A DNA stretch of 63,995 bases, counting the filler, from an uncultured Methanosarcinales archaeon (lineage in GTDB: Archaea > Nanobdellota > Nanobdellia > Woesearchaeales > CAYZNE01), in the NCBI GenBank assembly GCA_964405295.1. It is 12 parts of 12 records of this genome, joined end to end, with 100 filler letters (N's around TTAATTAATTAA, not from the genome) between each part and the next. Parts side by side here need not be neighbours in the genome. Positions count along the whole stretch, not along the records: positions 5,998 to 11,812 come from CAYONI010000032.1; 11 more parts are not named here. One strand, 5' to 3'. The notes under the pieces are model-generated. The model saw only the letters and a list, made by a program, of their open reading frames with translations, had not been told where the DNA came from and ran no database searches. Made by a program: the position numbers and the translations under genes. Positions 5,766 through 16,488 of the stretch are shown one piece after another. Positions within the stretch are counted from its first letter, which is position 1; each line of letters opens with the position of its first letter.

Positions 5766-5997
5766 AATCTCCTCCTAATTTGAACATTTGTCAACATAAC
5801 GAAAAAATAATTTAGTATTACAATCAAAATAATACCAAATAGCCTTATTTGTTTTTGAATATTTTACAAAAAATACTCGATTAGTACTTGGCTCATANNN
5901 NNNNNNNNNNNNNNNNNNNNNNNNNNNNNNNNNNNNNNNNNTTAATTAATTAANNNNNNNNNNNNNNNNNNNNNNNNNNNNNNNNNNNNNNNNNNNN

Positions 5998-6067
5998 AAT
6001 TGAACCGTCGACACATGGATTTTCAATCCAAAACTGCAGCAAAAAAGAGACAAAAATGTCTCTTTTT
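5998..6067 (-). repeat. tRNA-Phe-derived att-like repeat R1 (truncated by contig start)
   Basis: AATTGAACCGTCGACACATGGATTTTCAATCC (5998-6029) followed by AAAACTGCA and hairpin AAAAAGAGAC/GTCTCTTTTT. Confidence 0.9.
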
Positions 6068-6238
6068 ACTTTACAGTTACTTGTGGTATGGCTCATTGTT
6101 ACTAATTCTAAATGAACGATATACTTGTTCTAATAGTATTAGTTTCATTAGTTGATTTGGTATATTCATCTAGAAATTATTTTGAAGACTTTAAATGCTA
6201 TGATAGAATAGAATCATACAAAATAGGAGAATTCAATT

Positions 6239-6964
6239 ATGATAAGTAATAATACAAAAAAAGCTCTACTAGAAACAGCAAGTTTTAATATGAGAACATA
6301 GATTATGGGACATTTAAATATTCTCTCCTTTTTCTGGTTACTATTGTTGTTCTTTTATTCTAGATATGTTCTAAAACAAAATGAAGTTGTTAGAAATAGA
6401 TTTCTCAAGATACAATTATTGTTAGTTCTTTTATACAATATCGGATTCTTGTTTGTTTTTCCTTGGAAAATCCCAATAGAGCTTTCAACAACATCGTATT
6501 TTGTAGTTCCTATAATAGTTCTATTCAGCATCAAGTATTTAAAAGCTTGGGGTGTCTATGCATCTATTCTTACTGGTTCTATATATTTTATTGGTATGTT
6601 AATAATGGGGAATAAACTATATAGTAATTTTCCTCCATACAGTGTATATACATCACTTTATAATCATGGAGCACTAATATCTTATGCACTTATTACTTTG
6701 AAAACCGCAGAATTCCATAAGTCTGAGAGAAATATAATCTGGGTTGGATTAGGATTATCAGCAGCATGGGCTCTATTACTCAGACCCTTAGTTACATTCA
6801 CAGGAAGAATATTTATATATATATTATTAGATGGTGATCTTATAAATATTTACTTTCCAAATAATTTGAATTTAAGATTTATAATCTATTACCCACTACT
6901 TATTGTAGTATTAATCTTTTCAGCTAATGTAGTTCATCTATTAAATCAGAAATTGAAAACATAA
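6239..6964 (+). pseudogene. multi-TM membrane protein (YwaF/TMEM164-like); probable nonsense lesion
   Basis: GGAG RBS and ATG at 6239 are in frame with ORF 6305-6964 but interrupted by TAG at 6299-6301; IPIELSTTSYF and YNHG motifs; ~7 TM segments. Confidence 0.55.
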
Positions 6965-7290
6965 AAAGTAGACTCTATTCCATAGAATCTGCTTTTTTAA
7001 TATCACTTAATGTTTTATATTAAATAAACAAATTTTCCTGTTACTCATATATATTGAAAAGGTATAGATAGAACAAAGTTCGATGCAGACAAACAAAAGA
7101 CCAAAATTAAGGTCTATTTTTTGTTAAAAACAGCTTAGCTATTTCTTATATTGCAACTATCTAAATGATTATCTACTATACCAACTGATTGCATATAAGC
7201 ATACATAATCGTTGAGTCTACAAAACTAAAAACTATTAATTTAGTGTTTGTCCGTATCTCTAGACAGCAATATGAAATTTTTAAAAAAGA

Positions 7291-7417
7291 GTAAATAAAA
7301 AAGCCGATAAACGGCTTAAATAAGATGTAGATGGTGGCTCCGAGCGGAATTGAACCATCGACACATGGATTTTCAATCCAAAACTGCACCAAAAAAGAGA
7401 CATTTCAGTCTCTTTTT
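7291..7417 (-). repeat. tRNA-Phe-derived att-like repeat R2
   Basis: 7332-7379 reverse complement GGATTGAAAATCCATGTGTCGATGGTTCAATTCCGCTCGGAGCCACCA (anticodon arm to CCA); hairpins on both sides. Confidence 0.92.
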
Positions 7418-7503
7418 GCTTATCAAAAATAAGTAATACGACTCTTTTTAACGCTTTTTAGTTCAACTAATTATTATATGCATTTGTTATTTTAATTCAC
7501 AAT

Positions 7504-9678
7504 TCAATTTTCTAAAGAGAATAAATCAACATTTGTTAAGATAACAATTTTGTCCCCTTGTAATGTCCATATTTGATTTCCCAAAAACATTACTATCTTA
7601 ATTTCTTCAACGATATTACCTTCATAATCCATTTTCAGTAAAAGTGATTGTCTATAATCTGGATAATCTTCAGTATATGGTGTAGCACTCAAATAGATAT
7701 AATCTTCATCGTGAGCAAAGTGAGCAGATGAAGAATATTGTTCTTGCAAGTCTTTAATTACATTTCCTTTACTATCAACAACAAGGATATGAAAAGGGCT
7801 CATACTTGCCCAATTCTCAACATAATCATAGGTTTGTGGATGACTAATTAAGTATAAGTCATCATCTATTGATATAATATCCCCAACAGGATTCAGATTA
7901 TCAGTATTCCATATTTCTTCATTTGTTTTTGTTACTTCAATTACAGTGATAGGACCACGAAATCCTTCTACAGCACTTACTGCTCTTGACATAATAAATG
8001 TGTTCCTATCAGTTACACCATACAATTCTCCAGGTAATGAGTATTCATCAATAATATTACCATTCAAATCAATTTCAACAATTAACTCTTCATAAGTATT
8101 AGACGCATCAAGATATATCATTTCATCTTTAATGATTAATCCATTGATTTCTTGATATATGACATTCCACAAAGATACCCCTGAATTATCTATATAATGA
8201 AGTTTTCTCGATATATTTAGGTCTAATAATGACACATCTTCATCTTCAATAATGCATTCAAAAAATAACTTGTCTCCATTTTCAAAAAGATATAATGTAT
8301 TACTCGAGCTTGTAGGACGCACATAAATCTCAGTATCTATTATTCCTTCAGAATCTGCTGTATAGATTGTATTCCTATCTTGAAAAATGACTTCACCATC
8401 ATTTTCTGAAATTACACTAACAAAATCTTCAACATATTGTGTCCATAAAACATTTCCATTAATATCTCTTCGTTCTAGTAATGAATCTTGAGTTAAAAAG
8501 TACCCATCTTCTATTACATCAACTTCAAAACTATCATCTTCAATCACGCTATATATTTCTTCACCTTTATCGTTTACATGAACAAAACGATATGTTCTAG
8601 TATCTAGAATATGGTATGAAAACAAAAAAGCTTTATCTTGTATTGCGTAAGCATCTATACCAAATATTGATTCAAACTCATACAAGACTTCAACTGAGTT
8701 AATATCAAATTTGATCAACTCATATTTGTCTACAATAGGTAAATCATATCTATATGGTTTACGCAAAGCAAAATAACTACCATCACTTGTATGTATTGGA
8801 TATATTTTTCTCTGTTTCAAACTATGAATATAAATAGATGTTAAGTCATTTACACTTAAAATTTCTGTTCCATCTTGCTCAAATATCCCTGTTGTACAAT
8901 TTCTTACACCAAAACAATATCTAACCAATAATAAATCATCATGGATATCTTTTATATCCCAAAAACTTCTATAAACTTCTAACTTCCACAATATATTATA
9001 ATCATAATCAAGTATTGCCAAAGACTTATGAGTATAGGCAGAAACTCCAATATCAGCATCATAATATTCAATAGCAATTACATTTTTTAATTCCTTATAC
9101 CCGAAAATATAGTAATTTGAAAAAATGGATAACATTTCACTACTTACTTCCAATTCTTCAATATTAATTGTGTATTGATTCATATCCCATTTTGCATATA
9201 AGGTGAAATTACTTGAAACCTGTTTGGAAAAATCGTAAGTCACAGCAAAATCATTGTCAGTATACCATCCATCAAATATATATCCTTCTCTTTGGATAGC
9301 TGGACTGTCAATATCTTTCAAATAATCTAGAGTGATGTCTTCTACTCCACTTCCACCATTTTCTTCAAAGCTAATTGTGTATTGATTTATCTCCCATTTG
9401 GCATATAGGGTGAAATTATTTGAAACTGGTTTGGAAAAATCGTAAGGCACAGTGAAGTTATTGTCAGTATACCACCCTAAAAAATCATGTCCCTCTTTTA
9501 AAGATCTTTCTGGTTCAATCACAAAATTCCCTTCAGATACTGATATTGTTTCAACCATAGATCCCTCATCAGTATCAAAACCCACATTATAAGACTGAGT
9601 GCAACCACTTAAAAACAGCATAAAAAACAGGATTGTTATAAATGCTGTAACTTTAATTTTTTCTTTCATAGATATCAC
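7504..9678 (-). CDS. lipoprotein with two InlB B-repeats and a beta-propeller-like C-terminal region
   Basis: Lipobox LSGC; repeats KEGHDFLGWYTD..TLYAKW and REGYIFDGWYTD..TLYAKW; recurring GNVLW/ILW blade motifs. Confidence 0.82.
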   Translation of the reverse strand: MISMKEKIKVTAFITILFFMLFLSGCTQSYNVGFDTDEGSMVETISVSEGNFVIEPERSLKEGHDFLGWYTDNNFTVPYDFSKPVSNNFTLYAKWEINQYTISFEENGGSGVEDITLDYLKDIDSPAIQREGYIFDGWYTDNDFAVTYDFSKQVSSNFTLYAKWDMNQYTINIEELEVSSEMLSIFSNYYIFGYKELKNVIAIEYYDADIGVSAYTHKSLAILDYDYNILWKLEVYRSFWDIKDIHDDLLLVRYCFGVRNCTTGIFEQDGTEILSVNDLTSIYIHSLKQRKIYPIHTSDGSYFALRKPYRYDLPIVDKYELIKFDINSVEVLYEFESIFGIDAYAIQDKAFLFSYHILDTRTYRFVHVNDKGEEIYSVIEDDSFEVDVIEDGYFLTQDSLLERRDINGNVLWTQYVEDFVSVISENDGEVIFQDRNTIYTADSEGIIDTEIYVRPTSSSNTLYLFENGDKLFFECIIEDEDVSLLDLNISRKLHYIDNSGVSLWNVIYQEINGLIIKDEMIYLDASNTYEELIVEIDLNGNIIDEYSLPGELYGVTDRNTFIMSRAVSAVEGFRGPITVIEVTKTNEEIWNTDNLNPVGDIISIDDDLYLISHPQTYDYVENWASMSPFHILVVDSKGNVIKDLQEQYSSSAHFAHDEDYIYLSATPYTEDYPDYRQSLLLKMDYEGNIVEEIKIVMFLGNQIWTLQGDKIVILTNVDLFSLEN

Positions 9679-9944
9679 TGTCCCTAATTATTATCTTCAA
9701 CTTAATTATACTTTATTCAATCAAAAGTTCAACAACAAAAATAATAAGGAATTATATATATTTTATATCAAAATCAATATCAAATTCTATATGATGCATT
9801 TAAAACAGTCTTGTGTTCCTGCATATCACTAGTTGCTCTTATTTATGATACTACTCACGTTATTAAATCTTAATAAAAAATGAAATTGTGCATGCTTTTC
9901 GCTTGTCCATGTGTCGACACAAGAAAATGTAACATGATATAATT

Positions 9945-10072
9945 GTAAATAAAAAAGCCCTAAAAGGGCTTAGATAAATTGTAGATGATGGCTCCGGGAA
10001 GAATTGAACCTTCGACACATGGATTTTCAATCCAAAACTGCTACAAAAAAGAGACAAAAATGTCTCTTTTTT
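9945..10072 (-). repeat. tRNA-Phe-derived att-like repeat R3
   Basis: tRNA half at 9986-10033 (CCA mutated to TCA, T-stem degenerate) with the same two hairpin arms. Confidence 0.9.
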
Positions 10073-10094
10073 GTATTTATATTGTAGTAAATTT

Positions 10095-10699
10095 TCAATT
10101 TATAGTTAAATTAAACATTGTCAAAATGTTTTGTCCGAATTGACTATTTGATATGCATGATATTCCACCAGCATTACCTTTAAGAAACACTTCGCTCATC
10201 TTTTCAGGAGATATCTTTAGCCACGAACTAATCAGATATCCGATTACTACTCCATGAGAAACAATAACAATATCTTTTGATCTATTTATAAGGAAGCATT
10301 CAATAAAAGATTCCATTCTTTGATATAGTTCTCTTGGTGTTTCCGCACCATTCCATAATGGTTTATCAACTTGAAGAGCATTTGAGTCGAATAGTTTGTT
10401 TTTACTGGCCCATTCATAGTTTTATTTGCAGCTTCCCCATTATTGATTTCTCTTAATAATTCAGTATCAGTAATCTTAATTCCGAATCTTTCACTAATAT
10501 ACTCCGCTGTCATAAATGCTCGTTTTAGATCTGAGCTATAAAGTACAAAATCACTTAGTCCCAGGTTTTCAATCTCTTCAGCAACTGCTTTAGATTGATT
10601 TATCCCTAACTCAGTTAATGGTGTATCCGTCCAACCACCTGTTAACTCATTAATGTGATGTTCTGATTGACAATGCTGAATGATATATATTTTACACAT
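10095..10699 (-). pseudogene. histidine phosphatase (PGM) family, frameshifted near 10413
   Basis: N-half IIQHCQS..GGWTDTPLTELG..SSDLKRA..LREIN and C-half IVIVSHG lie in different frames; adding one base restores M-E-W-A..GAETP. Confidence 0.8.
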
Positions 10700-10785
10700 G
10701 CTAATCAACCCCTTTAGCTTTCATAGAAATATTATAACATATCAATAATAAAAGTACTTCTTCTTTCAAAATAGCACAAAATCAA

Positions 10786-10884
10786 GTAAATAAAAAAGCC
10801 TCAAAAAGGCTTAAATAAGATGTAGATGGTGGCTCCGGGCGGAATTGAACCATCGACACATGGATTTTCAATCCAAAATTGCAA
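10786..10884 (-). repeat. tRNA-Phe-derived att-like repeat R4 (GAGAC hairpin arm deleted)
   Basis: tRNA half at 10827-10874; terminator hairpin AAGCCT/AGGCTT present. Confidence 0.9.
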
Positions 10885-10950
10885 CTTGTTACTAAATGTA
10901 TATATACCCCTTTATAATAAAAGCAATAAACTGTATAATAATATCAAGAG

Positions 10951-11517
10951 GTGATAATAATGAAAATATTGACTTTATACTATTCAAAATCAGGAAATAC
11001 AAAAAAAATTGCAGAAGCAATTCATAATATTGCATCAATTAATAATGAAGCATCTTTAAAGTCATTAAAAGAAATAAATGATACTGATTTAAACAACTAT
11101 GATTTTATATTCTTAGGAGCACCTTGTCATCACTCAACACTAGCCAAAGTAATACTTTCATATATCGAAAAAATACCTTATAAGCCGTCATTTAAACTAG
11201 CTGGGTTTTATACACACTCAACAGTACATGCTGATGGAACAGAACGCAATGATTATCTCTTTAATAAATGGGCAGGTCGTTCCAAAAAAGCGTTTGATAA
11301 TTTAGCTAAAGAAAAAGAAATTGAATTACTAGGACAGTTCCACTGTCAAGGTAGTGCCAGTTTCTTAATTGAGAAGTTCATAAGATCACAAATTATAAAA
11401 AATAAAGCTGAATGGGTTCCTTATCGAAAAGAAATGAGATTACATCCTACTAATGAAGATATAGAAAATGCCAAAGAATTCGCAAAAATGATTATTATTA
11501 AAGCAGATATCTCATAG
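10951..11517 (+). CDS. flavodoxin family protein
   Basis: YYSKSGNTKKIAEAI FMN loop; YDFIFLGAP; HPTNEDIENAKEF; hairpin terminator ~11550-11577. Confidence 0.85.
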   Translation: MIIMKILTLYYSKSGNTKKIAEAIHNIASINNEASLKSLKEINDTDLNNYDFIFLGAPCHHSTLAKVILSYIEKIPYKPSFKLAGFYTHSTVHADGTERNDYLFNKWAGRSKKAFDNLAKEKEIELLGQFHCQGSASFLIEKFIRSQIIKNKAEWVPYRKEMRLHPTNEDIENAKEFAKMIIIKADIS

Positions 11518-11659
11518 GATTTGAAATTATCGCAAATAGAATAAAGAAAAAAGTACATGATTAATTCATGTACTTTTAATTTTTTTCAGTGATTTCTTTT
11601 ACAATACATTCAACATATTACTACAAATAGCTAGTCACATATACCCCGAACAAAAAAAG

Positions 11660-11812
11660 ATAAATATAAACCCCTCAAAAAGGCTTAGATAAGATGTTGA
11701 TGGTGGCTCCGGGCTGAATTGAACCGTCGACACATTGATTTTCAATCCAAAACTGCAACAAAAAAGAGACATTTCAGTCTCTTTTTACTTTGCAATACCT
11801 TGTAATACGGCT
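11660..11812 (-). repeat. tRNA-Phe-derived att-like repeat R5 (contig ends in its arm)
   Basis: tRNA half at 11701-11748, hairpin 11760-11786, extended arm similar to R1. Confidence 0.9.
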
Positions 11813-11912
11813 NNNNNNNNNNNNNNNNNNNNNNNNNNNNNNNNNNNNNNNNNNNNTTAATTAATTAANNNNNNNNNNNNNNNNNNNNNNNNNNNNNNNN
11901 NNNNNNNNNNNN

Positions 11913-11968
11913 AACACAAAACAACTTATTCGCTTGCTATCCAGCAAGCTCATTTGGGACACACCCGA
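11913..11968. mobile_element. probable IS/MITE end (inverted-repeat partner of 17660-17675)
   Basis: TTTGGGACACACCCGA at 11953-11968 is the exact reverse complement of 17660-17675; both lie within ~55 nt of the contig ends. Confidence 0.55.
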
Positions 11969-12072
11969 TAAGATTGAAGGCTTTTATAGTTTTTTTTAAG
12001 AATTAGAAAATAAAAGAAAAAGAAATAAAAATGCTCAATAATCAAATAAATTATTGGCGCTGTTAAATGGAG

Positions 12073-13239
12073 TTAATTTAGCGCTTTTATTTGATCAAAA
12101 CCTTTAAGCCCATTATTTTGAAATAATACAAATCTTCGATTTATAATATCTCCATTTTCATTAACGTATGTTTCTTTATTTGTTGAGCCTTCAAAATATG
12201 AATCTCTCATGTTGTCTACCATGCACTGTTTTGAAAATTCATCACATTTGTCTAGTTTCGATGTGAAAGCCTCAAGTGTATCATATACTTGTTGTACAAA
12301 GACACTATCCTTTAATTCAGGGTGTTCTAGCACTAGGTCTTTTCTCCATTTTTCTGCGTTTGCTGAATCTGTTAGTTCGTCAATTGCAAAATCTGCTGTA
12401 TAAATGTTGATATTGTATTCCTCGAAGTCTGGAATCATTTTGTCCATTGTGTTCAAATTTACACTATCCTTTCCATTCAATAAATAGATATCAAGGCCCT
12501 CATAGTTTCTTTCAATTAATTGTTTGAAAACATTAGTTGCCATGAAGTCATACGTGCTCATTGTCATACATTTTATATTTTCATTTTTCATTTTTGCTAT
12601 TAACGTATTGTAATCTTTTTCTCCAACATTTACTATGTCTTTTCCTATTTCTGCATCTAAGTTGTCATTTAGTGTTTTAAAACTAGGTTCTGCTAATGGA
12701 ACATTTACTGAATGAAATGTAATTTTTTCACATTTTTCATTTTCCTTTATTTCTTGGCTTATTAGTTTTATAGCATATTGAAGTTCTGAGTTTGCTCCAT
12801 TGAAGATATATTCTTGTTTTGATGCATATTCGGAATCATAATTATTTGCTAATAGGATTATTTCTTTGTTTTTTGCAAATTCTTCAAGAGCCATTGATGG
12901 TCCGCTAAATGGAACAAAAAATACTTCAACTCCCTCTGCTTTCATTTTTTGAACTATAGATACTGTTTCTTTAGGATCCATTTTATTATCTTCGATAATC
13001 AGTTTAATTTTGGTCCCTTCTTTGTTAATGTTTGTTTCATATTCTAAAGCTGCTTTTCTGTATATGTCTCCATAGGCAGCTCCTGCTCCAGTTAAGGGTA
13101 GTAATACTCCGATTTCTACAACTTCTTGTGTTTCATCTTGTGTTCCATCTGTTGTGTTACCACATCCAGTTAAGATTGTGCTCATTATGATTATGCTCAT
13201 TATTAATAGTGTTAGAATTGCGTTTTTTGTTTTATTCAT
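12073..13239 (-). CDS. livK: branched-chain amino acid ABC transporter substrate-binding lipoprotein
   Basis: Lipobox LTGC; IGVLLPLTGAGAAYG; LIIEDNKMDP; operon context. Confidence 0.85.
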   Translation of the reverse strand: MNKTKNAILTLLIMSIIIMSTILTGCGNTTDGTQDETQEVVEIGVLLPLTGAGAAYGDIYRKAALEYETNINKEGTKIKLIIEDNKMDPKETVSIVQKMKAEGVEVFFVPFSGPSMALEEFAKNKEIILLANNYDSEYASKQEYIFNGANSELQYAIKLISQEIKENEKCEKITFHSVNVPLAEPSFKTLNDNLDAEIGKDIVNVGEKDYNTLIAKMKNENIKCMTMSTYDFMATNVFKQLIERNYEGLDIYLLNGKDSVNLNTMDKMIPDFEEYNINIYTADFAIDELTDSANAEKWRKDLVLEHPELKDSVFVQQVYDTLEAFTSKLDKCDEFSKQCMVDNMRDSYFEGSTNKETYVNENGDIINRRFVLFQNNGLKGFDQIKALN

Positions 13240-13299
13240 TTTTATAAACCTCTTTTCTTTACTAATATTGATAACTTATTTTATAAATTTTTCTAATAT

Positions 13300-14004
13300 T
13301 TATCTTCCACCAAAATATATTTCTTTAATTTTTTTATTTTCTAGAATATCTTTGCCACCTTCTAGTTTAATTTTTCCATCTTCTAATATATAGGTTCTAT
13401 GAGAAATAGAAACTGCTTGTTTTGCATTCTGTTCTACTATCATTATAGTCATTCCTTCTTTATTTAATTCTTGTATTATTTTAAATATGTGTTTCATAGT
13501 TTTAGGGTCTAATCCTAAAGATGGCTCGTCCAATAATAATAGTTTAGGTTCATGCATTAAGCTTCTTGCAATAGCTAAGATTTGTTGTTGTCCACCAGAT
13601 AGGGTGTAAGCTAATTTATTTTGTCTTTCTTTTAGTATTGGAAATCTGTCAAACACTTCTTTTATTTTAATTTTTACATGGTCTTTATTGTGAAAGGTGT
13701 ATAATCCCATTTCTAAATTTTCTTTCACTGTCAGATCTGAGAACACAAGCCTCCCTTGAGGGACAAAGCTTATGCCTTCTATTATTAAATTGTGAGTTGG
13801 TAATTTTGTAATATTGTTTTTGTTGAATATAATTTTTCCAGAATAAATATCACAAAGATTAAATATACTTTTTAGAAGTGTTGACTTTCCTGCTCCATTA
13901 GGTCCAATAAATGAAACTATTTCACCTGGTTTAATGTGAACATTCACATTTTCTAATATGTGCATTCCACCATATCCTGCGTTTAAGTTTTTTATTGTTA
14001 ACAT
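13300..14004 (-). CDS. livF: branched-chain amino acid ABC transporter ATPase
   Basis: GPNGAGKST, VPQGRLVF, LSGGQQQ, LLLDEPSLGL, IVEQN. Confidence 0.93.
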   Translation of the reverse strand: MLTIKNLNAGYGGMHILENVNVHIKPGEIVSFIGPNGAGKSTLLKSIFNLCDIYSGKIIFNKNNITKLPTHNLIIEGISFVPQGRLVFSDLTVKENLEMGLYTFHNKDHVKIKIKEVFDRFPILKERQNKLAYTLSGGQQQILAIARSLMHEPKLLLLDEPSLGLDPKTMKHIFKIIQELNKEGMTIMIVEQNAKQAVSISHRTYILEDGKIKLEGGKDILENKKIKEIYFGGR

Positions 14005-14742
14005 CTAATCACCCAAATAAGCTTCTAAAACCTTTTTGTTCTTCTTAATCTGTGCAGGTGTTCCTTCTGCAATAACTTTACCTTCATCCATTACGATTAT
14101 GTGGTCTGAGATATTTAATGTAAAATACATGTCGTGTTCTATTAGCAAAATTGTTTCTCCTTGTTTTTTTAGAATACTTAAAATTTTCATTATGTCTTTT
14201 CTAATTTTTGGATTAACTCCTGCAACTGGTTCGTCTAAAATTAATATTTTATGCGGGAGAATTATAGCTCTTGCTAATTCTACTAATCTTTTCTGACCAA
14301 AACTTAAGTCTCCTGCAATATGATTCTTCATCTTAGTTATATTCAATAATTTTAATACATCAGTAATCTTTTCCTCAAATAATTTTTTATTCTTATTCGG
14401 ATAAAGTAAATTGTTCCAGAATTGAGTATTATCTTTATTAATCGATATAAGTAGATTTTCTTTTACTGTTAAGTTATTAAACAATCTTGATTTTTGAAAT
14501 ACTCTGCTCAATCCCAGTTTGGATATTTGATATGGTTTTAACTCAGTTATATCTTGGCTTGATAGAAATATTTTCCCTTTGTCTTTTTTTTCAAATCCTG
14601 AAATAAGATTGAAAACTGTTGATTTCCCTGCTCCATTTGGTCCAATGAGCGCAGTTATTTTGTTATCAGAGAGTTTAAAACTACATCCATCTACTGCTTT
14701 TATTCCTCCAAAATATTTTTTTAAGTTTTTTATTTCTAACAT
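14005..14742 (-). CDS. livG: branched-chain amino acid ABC transporter ATPase
   Basis: FGGIKAV, GPNGAGKST, LSFGQKRLVELARA, LDEPVAG, IEHDM, VLEAYLG. Confidence 0.93.
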   Translation of the reverse strand: MLEIKNLKKYFGGIKAVDGCSFKLSDNKITALIGPNGAGKSTVFNLISGFEKKDKGKIFLSSQDITELKPYQISKLGLSRVFQKSRLFNNLTVKENLLISINKDNTQFWNNLLYPNKNKKLFEEKITDVLKLLNITKMKNHIAGDLSFGQKRLVELARAIILPHKILILDEPVAGVNPKIRKDIMKILSILKKQGETILLIEHDMYFTLNISDHIIVMDEGKVIAEGTPAQIKKNKKVLEAYLGD

Positions 14743-14743
14743 T

Positions 14744-15616
14744 TTAGTTTAACACGACTTTTCCAAAGAATCCTTTTGGTTGATATATTAGGATAATAAT
14801 TAAGATTAGTGCATAAATAATTTGTCTTGCGGGTCCTAGAATTGATGAAGGCATGCCTACAAATCTTAATATTTCTGGTATTATAACAAGGATGATGGTT
14901 GCAAAAAATGTCCCTTTAAGTGAGGCCAAACCTCCAATAATTATCATGCATACGATAGGGATAATCATCATCATTGCAAATGAAGAAGGATCAATAAAAG
15001 TTATGTAGTGAGCATAAAGACTTCCTGCAATTCCCGCAAAGAATGCAGATATCATTAATCCTATCGTTTTTATTTTGAAAGTATTTTTTCCAAGAGCCTT
15101 AGCTGCATCCTCATCGTCTCTTGTTGCTTGCAGCAGGTTTCCAAACGGGCTTTTAACAATTTTATGTAATATAGAATAAGTTAATCCTGTAATAACTAAC
15201 GCAAGAATAAGAAAAGATAAATTATTACTTATTTTTAGACCAAAAATTATTGGTTTGGTTATTCCGGGTATTCCTAGTGGCCCTTTTGTTAATGAATTCC
15301 AGTTAAGCATAAGGGCATATATAACAAAAGAAAATCCCATTGTTGCAAGTGCCAAATAATCTCCTTTTAGTCTATTCGTAGGTATTGATAATAAGTATGC
15401 AAAAAACATTGGGATAATCCCTGCACATAGTAATGCTATTATCCAAGGAACACCTTGCATTGTCAATAATGCAGAAGTGTATGCTCCTATTCCAAAGAAT
15501 GCAATATGTCCAAAATTTAATAATCCTGCATAACCGATAGATATTTGTAAAGATAGGGCTAAAACTAAGTCAATACATATAATAATTGCAACGTGTATTA
15601 GGTATGCTGATATCAT
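14744..15616 (-). CDS. livM: branched-chain amino acid ABC transporter permease
   Basis: GYAGLLNFGHIAFFGIGAY, RLKGDYLALAT, ATRDDEDAA. Confidence 0.92.
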   Translation of the reverse strand: MISAYLIHVAIIICIDLVLALSLQISIGYAGLLNFGHIAFFGIGAYTSALLTMQGVPWIIALLCAGIIPMFFAYLLSIPTNRLKGDYLALATMGFSFVIYALMLNWNSLTKGPLGIPGITKPIIFGLKISNNLSFLILALVITGLTYSILHKIVKSPFGNLLQATRDDEDAAKALGKNTFKIKTIGLMISAFFAGIAGSLYAHYITFIDPSSFAMMMIIPIVCMIIIGGLASLKGTFFATIILVIIPEILRFVGMPSSILGPARQIIYALILIIILIYQPKGFFGKVVLN

Positions 15617-16488
15617 TTTTTAATTCCTTTTTTAATTCCTAAAAGTCCATCTGGTTTAAATAATAAAAATATGAATAATAATCCGAATGCGATTGCATCT
15701 TTATATCCTGAGGGCAAAAACCATATTCCAAAATTCTCAACAATTCCAAGTAAAAATGCGCCTAATATTGCCCCTGGCACAGATGAAACTCCGCCAATAA
15801 TTGCGCCGGTAAATCCTTTTATCATTAAGTTAGATCCCATTGAGGGTTCAAGGTTTTGTTCCAAAGCTACTAGTATTCCTGCAATCCCTGCAATTGCTGA
15901 ACCAATAATAAAGCTATAATTATAGATTTTCTTAGTATTAATTCCTAAAACTTCAGATAAGTTTTTATCATCAGAAACTGCTCGCATAGCTTTTCCTAGA
16001 GAGCTATTTTTCATTAACCACAGTAAGAAACCAAGTAATAGGATTGCAGTTATAATTATTACAATTTGTAAAGGTGTTATTATTGCACCAAAAAGAGAAA
16101 TTCCTTTTGCGACTTTCAAGAATCCTATTGTTTTTGCATCTGCACTAAAAATTAGCAAGACCAGTGATTCTATTAGAATTAATAGTCCAACGCTGGCTAT
16201 GAGCATTATGGTTGGGCTGGCTTTTCTTTCTCTTAATTTTGCATAAACAATATAATTGAGTAGTAATCCAACGAGAGCAGTGCTTATTATCGTTAGTATT
16301 ACTGATATCCAAAAATTTATCCCTATTAATGAATAAAATAAGTAAAGTAGATATCCACCTGCAACTATAACTGAGCCATGAGCAAAATGAACAAATTTAT
16401 TTGTTTTATAGATTAAAGAGAATCCTGCTGCAATAAGTGCATAGATTGCACCGGCAATCAATCCATTAGCTAATAGTTGCATAAACAT
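15613..16488 (-). CDS. livH: branched-chain amino acid ABC transporter permease
   Basis: QLLANGLIAGAIYAL, HFAHG, LGKAMRAVSDD, KPDGLLG. Confidence 0.92.
   Translation of the reverse strand: MFMQLLANGLIAGAIYALIAAGFSLIYKTNKFVHFAHGSVIVAGGYLLYLFYSLIGINFWISVILTIISTALVGLLLNYIVYAKLRERKASPTIMLIASVGLLILIESLVLLIFSADAKTIGFLKVAKGISLFGAIITPLQIVIIITAILLLGFLLWLMKNSSLGKAMRAVSDDKNLSEVLGINTKKIYNYSFIIGSAIAGIAGILVALEQNLEPSMGSNLMIKGFTGAIIGGVSSVPGAILGAFLLGIVENFGIWFLPSGYKDAIAFGLLFIFLLFKPDGLLGIKKGIKK

Follow-up and report, generated by a model that had tools for sequence, protein, structure and literature searches.

Additive flexible genomic islands (fGIs) are composed of gene cassettes located at tRNA genes, including tRNA-Phe in Alteromonas, and contain direct repeats of partial tRNAs, as outlined in PMC4898812. 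In a Methylophilaceae island, copies of the last 20 bp of tRNA-Lys recur, according to the outline in PMC10872708. The tycheposons of Prochlorococcus are described in outline as possessing integration and replication modules and leaving partial tRNAs in their islands (10.1101/2020.12.28.424599). The subject of this study is an array of single-gene cassettes, separated by direct repeats derived from tRNA-Phe, on contig C32 (positions 5998-11812, 5815 nt) of the window, which is the whole 63,995-nt stretch of DNA that was analyzed. The window is joined from contigs of GCA_964405295.1 (G000), a 98-contig, 1.27-Mb metagenome-assembled genome (MAG) labelled as an archaeon. An earlier note read this array as non-autonomous elements accreted at tRNA-Phe by an integrase acting in trans, likened it to an integron, and knew of no described system of such architecture. 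The architecture is not undescribed, since additive fGIs, tycheposon islands, and accretion of cis-mobilizable elements (CIMEs) are all published.

C32 is probably a piece of an Izemoplasmatales-like (Mycoplasmatota) cassette array that was built by a tRNA-Phe-linked recombinase acting in trans. Each repeat is a recombination junction of the attP/attR type. The general kind of system has been published, and this one works like an integron while lying outside the integron family. The unusual features are the uniformity and density of its one-gene units, a 22-nt core that is exact order-wide, up to 58 mostly integrase-less sites per genome, and a platform composed of a recombinase and a rolling-circle replication (RCR) Rep protein. 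No description of the repeat family or of Izemoplasmatales cassette arrays was found in the literature, searched at the level of listings and abstracts.

As far as the cited outlines go, the array resembles additive fGIs in having variable cassettes at a tRNA-derived site with partial-tRNA repeats, a content that differs among close strains, and genes of mostly unknown function. Unlike those islands, its cassettes are mostly single genes of 0.4-1.5 kb, its repeat has a conserved element-side arm besides the tRNA part, and the exchange maps to the anticodon-arm region instead of the last 20 bp. Moreover, a single genome has 58 sites, distributed over about 10 arrays and mostly distant from the tRNA gene, a conserved recombinase and Rep module is located at the tRNA, and the hosts are Mycoplasmatota. 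With tycheposons, as outlined, the system shares a tRNA-targeting tyrosine recombinase, modules for integration and for replication, and successive integrations that push older material into the island and leave partial tRNAs as well as degenerate elements behind. Tycheposons are given as one or two per genome, each with its own integrase and cargo of up to 10 kb or more, whereas nearly all units here lack an integrase and carry one gene, and the Rep is of the RCR G2P type rather than a primase/helicase. The integrase and Rep module is present once per tRNA-Phe locus, not once per cassette. CIMEs, as summarized in PMC5704250, likewise keep attL and attR without recombination genes, lie in tandem, and are mobilizable in cis or in trans by a related integrase. 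There they are decayed integrative and conjugative or mobilizable elements (ICEs/IMEs), one or few per site; the present one-gene units are uniform, number dozens, share one arm and core, and have no associated conjugation genes.

C32 is bounded by artificial linkers of N runs around TTAATTAATTAA (C31/C32 at 5898-5997 and C32/C33 at 11813-11912), so that it is one whole contig; the window being joined MAG contigs, features that span these linkers are not real. Both ends of C32 fall within repeats and the bin is in 98 contigs, as would suit a chimeric or collapsed contig assembled from repeats. The probability of such an artefact is negligible: an independent metagenome assembly has all 5815 nt, 99.98% identical, at 9813-15627 of the 21,117-nt contig Ga0307992_1000673 (M673), and Logan contigs from two runs of two studies (X1 and X2) span each cassette up to the repeats.

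A 41-nt repeat pattern with at most 2 mismatches matched C32 five times (5997-6037, 7347-7387, 10001-10041, 10842-10882, and 11716-11756), spaced 1350, 2654, 841, and 874 bp apart; the shuffle control gave 0 matches in 100. A repeat search of the window returned families of 161 nt and 120 nt with identities of 68-100%, and the copies are direct. Read on the minus strand, the repeat is composed of hairpin A (AAAAAGAGAC, a 6-nt loop, and GTCTCTTTTTT), TGCAGTTTTG, the 3' half of tRNA-Phe, and a terminator hairpin with a T run. The tRNA segment covers positions ~27-76, that is, the GAA anticodon loop, variable loop, T arm, acceptor strand, and an encoded CCA. A junction therefore has an element-side arm (the hairpin and TGCAGTTTTG) and a core of ~19-31 nt identical to the organism's own tRNA-Phe anticodon stem-loop and variable loop; 'long' junctions continue through the remainder of the tRNA 3' half, CCA included, and the tRNA terminator. 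When 21 junctions of the C32/M673 type were aligned, the conserved block ran from about -30, in hairpin A, through the core. The five direct repeats with one gene in each interval, as the earlier note had them, are thus borne out, and so is their nature as att-type junctions on the tRNA-Phe 3' half, by the anatomy of the five C32 copies and of 12 more in M673.

All five junction repeats are on the minus strand. Repeat 1 (5998-6117) is cut by the contig end and has its full copy at M673 15597; of the tRNA-Phe half it retains the T loop and everything inward of it (5998-6037), together with hairpin A (6042-6067) and the P-arm motif GAGCCATACCACAAG. Repeat 2 (7283-7467) possesses terminator hairpin B (7301-7317), the tRNA-Phe 3' half with CCA (about 7332-7379) adjoining TGCAGTTTTG, hairpin A (7392-7417), and the P-arm. 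Repeat 3 (9937-10121) has a T stem of GAAGG/CTTCC. Repeat 4 (10778-10938) is composed of terminator B, the tRNA half, and TGCAATTTTG, without hairpin A. In repeat 5 (11652-11812), the contig end cuts the P-arm (AGCCGTATTACAAGG), and the full copy is at M673 9878. ARAGORN found zero complete tRNAs in the window, and an Rfam scan of C32 returned nothing relevant, with one miRNA match at chance level. C32 contains 8 terminator-like hairpins against 1.1 expected, one per long junction. Judged from their sequence, these terminators would probably leave the cassettes to be expressed individually, which argues against read-through from a common cassette promoter (Pc).

A palindromic partial copy of the right half of the core (GTCCATGTGTCGACAC) is located in inverted orientation at window 9903-9924, with a degenerate copy at about 7230-7255. 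This palindrome lies ~30 nt past terminator B of some long junctions, and similar copies are present in the array contig L168. It may serve to bind a protein or belong to a larger site that folds.

As the earlier note had supposed, the array continues past both ends of C32. M673 has 12 junctions (4853, 6091, 7247, 7823, 9878, 10752, 11593, 14247, 15597, 17577, 20517, and 20993), and Ga0307990_1000607, which overlaps its right end at 99.98% identity, adds two more, followed by junction-free genes. The reconstructed array is ~26 kb in length with at least 14 junctions. Its further cassette genes encode a zinc alcohol dehydrogenase, a DUF2975 protein, a VTT/DedA protein, a methyltransferase, a beta-lactamase-fold protein, a CotH-like protein, glutamine synthetase, an MFS transporter, and an IS110 transposase. 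The IS110-family gene lies within the array in reverse orientation (L171 11433-12632). In the M673 array, 9 of 11 genes run along the junctions.

C32 does not belong to the organism that the bin represents. We conclude that C32, together with C51 and C66, is a bacterial, Mycoplasmatota-like contig mis-binned into an AT-rich DPANN archaeal MAG. The bin itself is archaeal: its contig C5 encodes the archaeal/eukaryal ribosomal protein L15e, which among 14 control genomes matches only the 4 archaea (Ribosomal_L39e was tried as a marker, gave no match, and was replaced by L15e). G000 has a single called tRNA-Phe, on C1, which is archaeal and does not resemble the repeat, and a search of G000 for the tRNA-Phe 5' half found none. 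The repeat, with its encoded CCA, is of a type that we take to be Firmicute. The left flank of the array in M673 has genes for a radical-SAM protein and a LigB-AMMECR1 fusion. Full-length identity of the fusion to a protein from the complete Mycoplasmatota genome CP134495.1 (G041) is 56%, whereas in G000 the identity is only 35% and covers one domain. Tetranucleotide correlations with G041 DNA are 0.982 for C32, 0.979 for C51, and 0.963 for C66, compared with 0.937, 0.927, and 0.906 with the large contigs of G000. GC content is about 0.30 alike in C32, C51, C66, G041 DNA, and the large G000 contigs. In 40 relatives of G000 the long repeat had 0 matches save one that covered the hairpin only, and in 300 other genomes of its order the short core of the C51 type had only 3 single matches, each with 2 mismatches. 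The near-absence of the core is explained by the mis-binning and not by rarity.

Other contigs of the bin also stand apart. The 15-kb C12 shows the same tetranucleotide shift (0.966 against 0.992) and is possibly bacterial as well. C42, C65, C76, and C87 have a GC content of 0.43-0.46 against 0.30 for the bin. C65, C76, and C87 carry 2-3 adjacent tyrosine recombinase genes, and C42 encodes a 404-aa integrase that neighbours a tRNA 3' end where the contig stops. These four, which lie outside the window or at its far end, are probably further foreign or mobile DNA. Serine recombinases were searched for in G000, and none were found.

Within the 1.27-Mb bin, junction repeats are present only on C32, C51, and C66. 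C51 and C66 carry 6 and 3-4 copies, respectively, of a 22-nt core, TGCATGAAACGACTGAAAATCC; their intervals hold one small gene each, in a single direction throughout, and only one copy runs on into a full tRNA half and terminator. A scan for this core in one genome per species gave 113 stretches, the highest counts being those of G041 and of several MAGs labelled Izemoplasmatales. With up to 3 mismatches, G041 has 58 cores in about 10 clusters, and the reversed-pattern control gave 0. Eight of the 58 are long junctions that repeat the 3' half and terminator of the resident tRNA-Phe. The others diverge soon after ATGTGTC and are followed, 40-110 nt downstream, by a ribosome-binding site and start codon. 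Intervals of 3.5 kb or less between one core and the next number 52 (46 in G041, 5 in C51, 1 in C66); of these, 51 contain one open reading frame (ORF) co-oriented with the core, and sizes range from 156 to 1538 bp. The strand of the array equals the sign of the local GC skew in 11/11 G041 loci examined (L133-L144). This fits co-orientation with replication, and equally the general gene-strand bias of such genomes.

Pfam was run on 20 of the 46 G041 cassette ORFs; 3 had a match at E <= 0.001, 2 of them above the curated cut-off. Of 56 cassette proteins, 37 would be bound to the membrane or anchored by lipid, judging by a crude count of hydropathy and lipoboxes. Two G041 cassettes (L143 18270-18698 and L144 2056-2505) match DUF4085 and, weakly, DUF5071, presumably families of immunity-like proteins, and some cassettes may be orphan immunity genes. 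Two other roles for the core were considered and rejected. As a promoter, its TGAAAC approximates the -35 box of extracytoplasmic function (ECF) sigma factors; the spacer and downstream bases misfit and the whole 22-mer is invariant. A dif-like site is 28 bp in length, with two 11-bp inverted arms and a 6-bp spacer. By inspection against the dif consensus, neither TGCATGAAACGACTGAAAATCC nor TGCAGTTTTGGATTGAAAATCC contains the dif dyad that a Xer/dif (pdif) module border would have.

The intact tRNA-Phe(GAA) and tyrosine recombinase that the earlier note expected at the array end were found in two related arrays, those of G041 and L173, and are missing at the C32 array's own end. The genuine tRNA-Phe(GAA) of G041 comes last in a cluster of 11 tRNAs. 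Downstream are its terminator, an IS200-type transposase gene, a core-less junction remnant, and, on the opposite strand, a gene encoding a 288-aa tyrosine recombinase. Beyond the recombinase lie genes for an RCR Rep and an XRE regulator, a small ORF, and 12 junctions; this tRNA-anchored array is located at 1246417-1257620. Its last junction is a full tRNA half with terminator, directly after which come oppositely oriented chromosomal genes. The Y1 transposase (PF01797, 7.6e-38) is encoded at L142 6677-7147 (G041 1246677-1247147), between the tRNA-Phe terminator and the recombinase module. L173 (Ga0307992_1010580), from the same sample series as M673, has the gene order of the G041 platform: tRNA-Phe, a core-deleted remnant, a 282-aa recombinase (PF00589, 1.9e-36; 64.7% identical to that of G041), a 274-aa Rep (PF23343, 1.1e-13, phrog_3419; 57% identity with the G041 Rep), XRE, an ORF, and junctions. 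The 3' half and terminator of its tRNA-Phe are the long junction sequence of the C32 type. L167 repeats the platform, with an integrase 67.6% and a Rep 57% identical. In a Logan contig of run X2, window repeat 1 (place 6030) runs into the 5' half of tRNA-Phe.

The core-deleted remnant, ...TTTTTTGGTG-GAAG-TCCATGTGTCGC..., lies by the recombinase 3' end at about 7270-7290 of L142 and at 160-185 of L173. Since G041 and L173 keep the same remnant, the recombinase module looks fixed in place since before the two lineages split. The recombinase is Xer-like and falls below every NCBIfam cut-off, including both integron-integrase models (89.5 and 75.7 bits for TIGR02249, whose cut-off is 265; 56.9 and 42.3 for NF011946, whose cut-off is 435). 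Its best model is the Xer-like NF040815, at 159 with a cut-off of 220. A paralogous recombinase, 38-45% identical, is likewise encoded behind tRNA-Arg (CCT or TCT) at L133 2497-3504 (G041) and L155 3250-4600. In G041, 7 kb past the tRNA-Arg locus, there is a small array whose cores are of the Phe type; a second tRNA-Arg half was looked for downstream of this paralogous integrase in G041, and none was found.

These parts suggest how the arrays could most simply form. Integrases that target tRNA genes exchange strands in the anticodon-loop region, and the anticodon stem provides inverted binding sites. The likely catalyst here would be the 282-288-aa Xer-like tyrosine recombinase encoded behind the genuine tRNA-Phe with the RCR Rep and XRE proteins, and strand exchange would take place in the anticodon-loop region. 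Small circles, each with one gene and one site, would enter and leave the tRNA gene or any junction. Arrays would grow in this way both at tRNA-Phe and at secondary chromosomal loci, the recombinase acting in trans. Long-arm units would restore the tRNA upon entering the gene, and short-arm units would enter only existing junctions; such a rule would account for the mixture of short and long junctions and for the original tRNA end that lies displaced on the anchored array's far side.

Cassette content does turn over, in keeping with the mobility that the earlier note proposed. L160 is 96-98% identical to M673 and precisely lacks the 2654-bp lipoprotein cassette; its hybrid junction combines the left arm of one flanking junction with the other's tRNA half, and the exchange falls within the shared TGCAGTTTTGGATTGAAAATCCATGTGTCGA. 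Two G041 arrays, separated by 219 kb, share a 637-nt cassette at 99.4% identity; its neighbours differ on both sides, and the identity begins and ends at the cores. Two otherwise differing array contigs have a 931-nt cassette in common at 95%, and L173 and L168 share a cassette with different upstream neighbours. Methyltransferase and MFS cassettes of one arm type have homologues in arrays of the other, with nt identities of 71% and 79%, respectively. Five relatives retain the left flank of M673 at 64-69% nt identity and none of its cassettes, and no junctions were found within about 1.5 kb of these left-flank homologues.

The same data bear on a different account, in which the repeat is itself a mobile or duplicating tRNA-derived element resembling a miniature inverted-repeat transposable element (MITE) or a repetitive extragenic palindromic (REP) sequence, the genes are residents, and strains differ through homologous recombination. 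The L160 deletion is the expected product of recombination between direct repeats, and hairpin and terminator content is typical of intergenic repeat elements. The copies, however, lie only in arrays (C32, C51, and C66 in the bin, and the G041 clusters) and are never scattered singly, so that the earlier note's expectation of clustering holds. Nor does that account square with the duplicated cassette ending exactly at cores on both sides, with the five relatives that keep the flanking genes without the cassette genes, or with the last junction of the tRNA-anchored array, which is the displaced original tRNA end, as integration predicts. A MITE/REP-like origin is therefore very improbable.

The T arms of the tRNA halves retain their pairing. 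Among 26 half-tRNA copies, 19 of them distinct, T-arm covariation is 0.370 compared with 0.173 when shuffled (0/500 reach 0.370) and at most 0.137 in slid controls, and pairs are kept by changes on both sides. In repeat 3 of C32, pair 51:63 has changed on both sides, to A-U from the C-G of the resident tRNA-Phe. Some halves therefore seem to derive from working tRNA ends or to have been retained as such.

The distribution of the repeat was surveyed in 81 sampled genomes of G041's order with the junction pattern TGCANNNNNNGAYTGAAAATCC, allowing at most 1 mismatch. It is present in 32 of the 81, and the reversed control gave 1 match. Twelve genomes have at least 3 matches, and both arm types can share one genome. 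Recombinase orthologues of at least 60% identity are encoded in 5 of these 12, in 0 of the 20 with 1-2 matches, and in 1 of the 49 junction-less genomes, where the copy contains a stop codon. In G363 (C64), G347 (C11), and G318 (C29), one contig carries both the recombinase and junctions, and the recombinase gene lies by the target tRNA in these three as in L173, L167, and G041, and not on C32 or M673. The association of recombinase with junctions is suggestive.

Several points weigh against a trans-acting, tRNA-Phe-linked origin for C32. Over 43 kb (M673 and the 22-kb extension), the C32 array has neither a tRNA by ARAGORN nor an integrase, and its left flank is composed of ordinary chromosomal genes; the array is therefore not anchored at tRNA-Phe, and the accretion at that gene proposed in the earlier note does not apply to it. 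The L160 exchange fell in a 31-nt identical core within 127 nt of similar repeat, so the deletion could equally come from homologous recombination between repeats. Many long junctions are decayed, and much of the array may thus be frozen. The assembled Logan contigs of runs X1 and X2 contain zero circular cassettes or excision joints. G041 arrays also lie near the 38%-identical paralogue at tRNA-Arg and near a 30%-identical recombinase beside the 352-kb array, so that the acting enzyme is not pinned down. Seven of the 12 genomes with at least 3 junctions showed no orthologue of at least 60% identity, these being MAGs in which tRNA clusters are often unassembled. The genomes are kin and many are incomplete, and the association counts overstate the case accordingly. 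The joints listed for the Logan contigs (6121>7357, 7417>11662, and others) were discarded, as cross-mapping among other junction copies explains them. Contig depths in X1 vary among cassettes (11.3 against about 16-18), and such depths cannot rank the parts.

Some of these points would be expected if the modules were stumps of larger, integrase-bearing elements that had entered tRNA-Phe and then shed their mobility genes, a fossil array of the CIME type whose cassettes were never mobile. Accretion followed by decay is a published route to tandems at tRNA genes, as PMC5704250 outlines it. Many half-tRNA copies are mutated, no circles were seen in the Logan contigs, and the recombinase on the tRNA-Phe side adjoins a core-deleted junction in G041 and L173. 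Against this reading, a tblastn search (E <= 1e-8) of M673 and the extension detected no integrase remnant, and none of the 14 PF00589 matches in the G000 assembly is on C32, which upholds the earlier note's observation that the modules lack an integrase. One small co-oriented ORF in 51 of 52 intervals would not easily result from larger elements decaying at random. Over dozens of copies and across genomes, the arm on the element side and the 22-nt core stay exact, one cassette has differing neighbours in two arrays, and arrays exist at loci without a tRNA-Phe gene. Decayed tandem islands are an unlikely explanation, and an array built in trans by the tRNA-Phe-linked recombinase remains the preferred one.

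The mechanism proposed in the earlier note is largely supported, and the system resembles integrons without being one by membership. Integrons and clusters of attC sites lacking integron integrases (CALINs) also have a fixed recombinase platform, mostly ORFan single-gene cassettes of about 0.4-1.5 kb in one orientation, and arrays without a nearby integrase. One-orientation, single-ORF arrangement holds for the 51 of 52 intervals of G041, C51, and C66, for 9 of 11 in M673, and for 2 of 4 on C32. Of the features of tRNA islands, the C32 array has the 3' tRNA repeats that bound its modules; an intact target tRNA at the array end is seen in the G041 and L173 arrays and not in that of C32. In contrast to integrons, the recombinase is not of the IntI type, lying below every IntI model cut-off; the sites derive from tRNA-Phe and are not attC hairpins (imperfect inverted repeats of the form R''-L''/L'-R' that fold in single strands), the attC core motifs being absent by inspection only; and 2 of 11 genes are reversed in the C32-type array. 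A bolder proposal, which we regard as tentative and rather doubtful, is that this is a second, independently evolved integron-type gene-capture system. A sedentary platform of Xer-like recombinase, RCR Rep, and XRE behind tRNA-Phe would then capture and shuffle one-gene cassettes by way of a 22-nt anticodon-arm site and seed integrase-less arrays around the chromosome, co-oriented with replication, and the Rep might supply single-stranded or amplified cassette circles.

Each of the four intervals of C32 holds one gene, and 2 of the 4 run against the repeat direction, in agreement with the mixed orientation first noted. The first gene (6305-6964, plus strand) encodes a 219-aa hydrophobic protein without a Pfam family and is oriented opposite to the junctions. 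A bidirectional terminator of its own lies at 7098-7115, and paralogous cassettes, at 68% nt identity, are present in two other array contigs. The second (7504-9678, minus strand) encodes a 724-aa lipoprotein with a lipobox and two Listeria-Bacteroides repeats (PF09479, 7e-35). The third (10095-10708, minus strand) is a histidine phosphatase (His_Phos_1, PF00300) composed of two ORFs that meet at about 10415, where a 1-nt frame change in a T run splits the gene. The run X2 contig has one extra T near this position, which by frame arithmetic gives a single ORF of ~204 aa; the split is either strain variation or a homopolymer error. The fourth (10951-11517, plus strand) encodes a 188-aa flavodoxin (PF12641), also runs against the junction direction, and has its own bidirectional terminator at 11549-11577.

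Short, AT-rich, repeat-filled contigs are easily mis-binned, as happened here with a DPANN archaeon, and might then be mistaken for archaeal biology. Should the cassettes be mobile one by one, bacteria of the Izemoplasmatales type would own an integron-like gene-capture device made from different parts, and integron-like cassette economies would have evolved more than once. A compact 22-nt site and a small recombinase would then be available to test. Such a device would also explain a sizeable share of the accessory genes, mostly for envelope proteins, in these small genomes.

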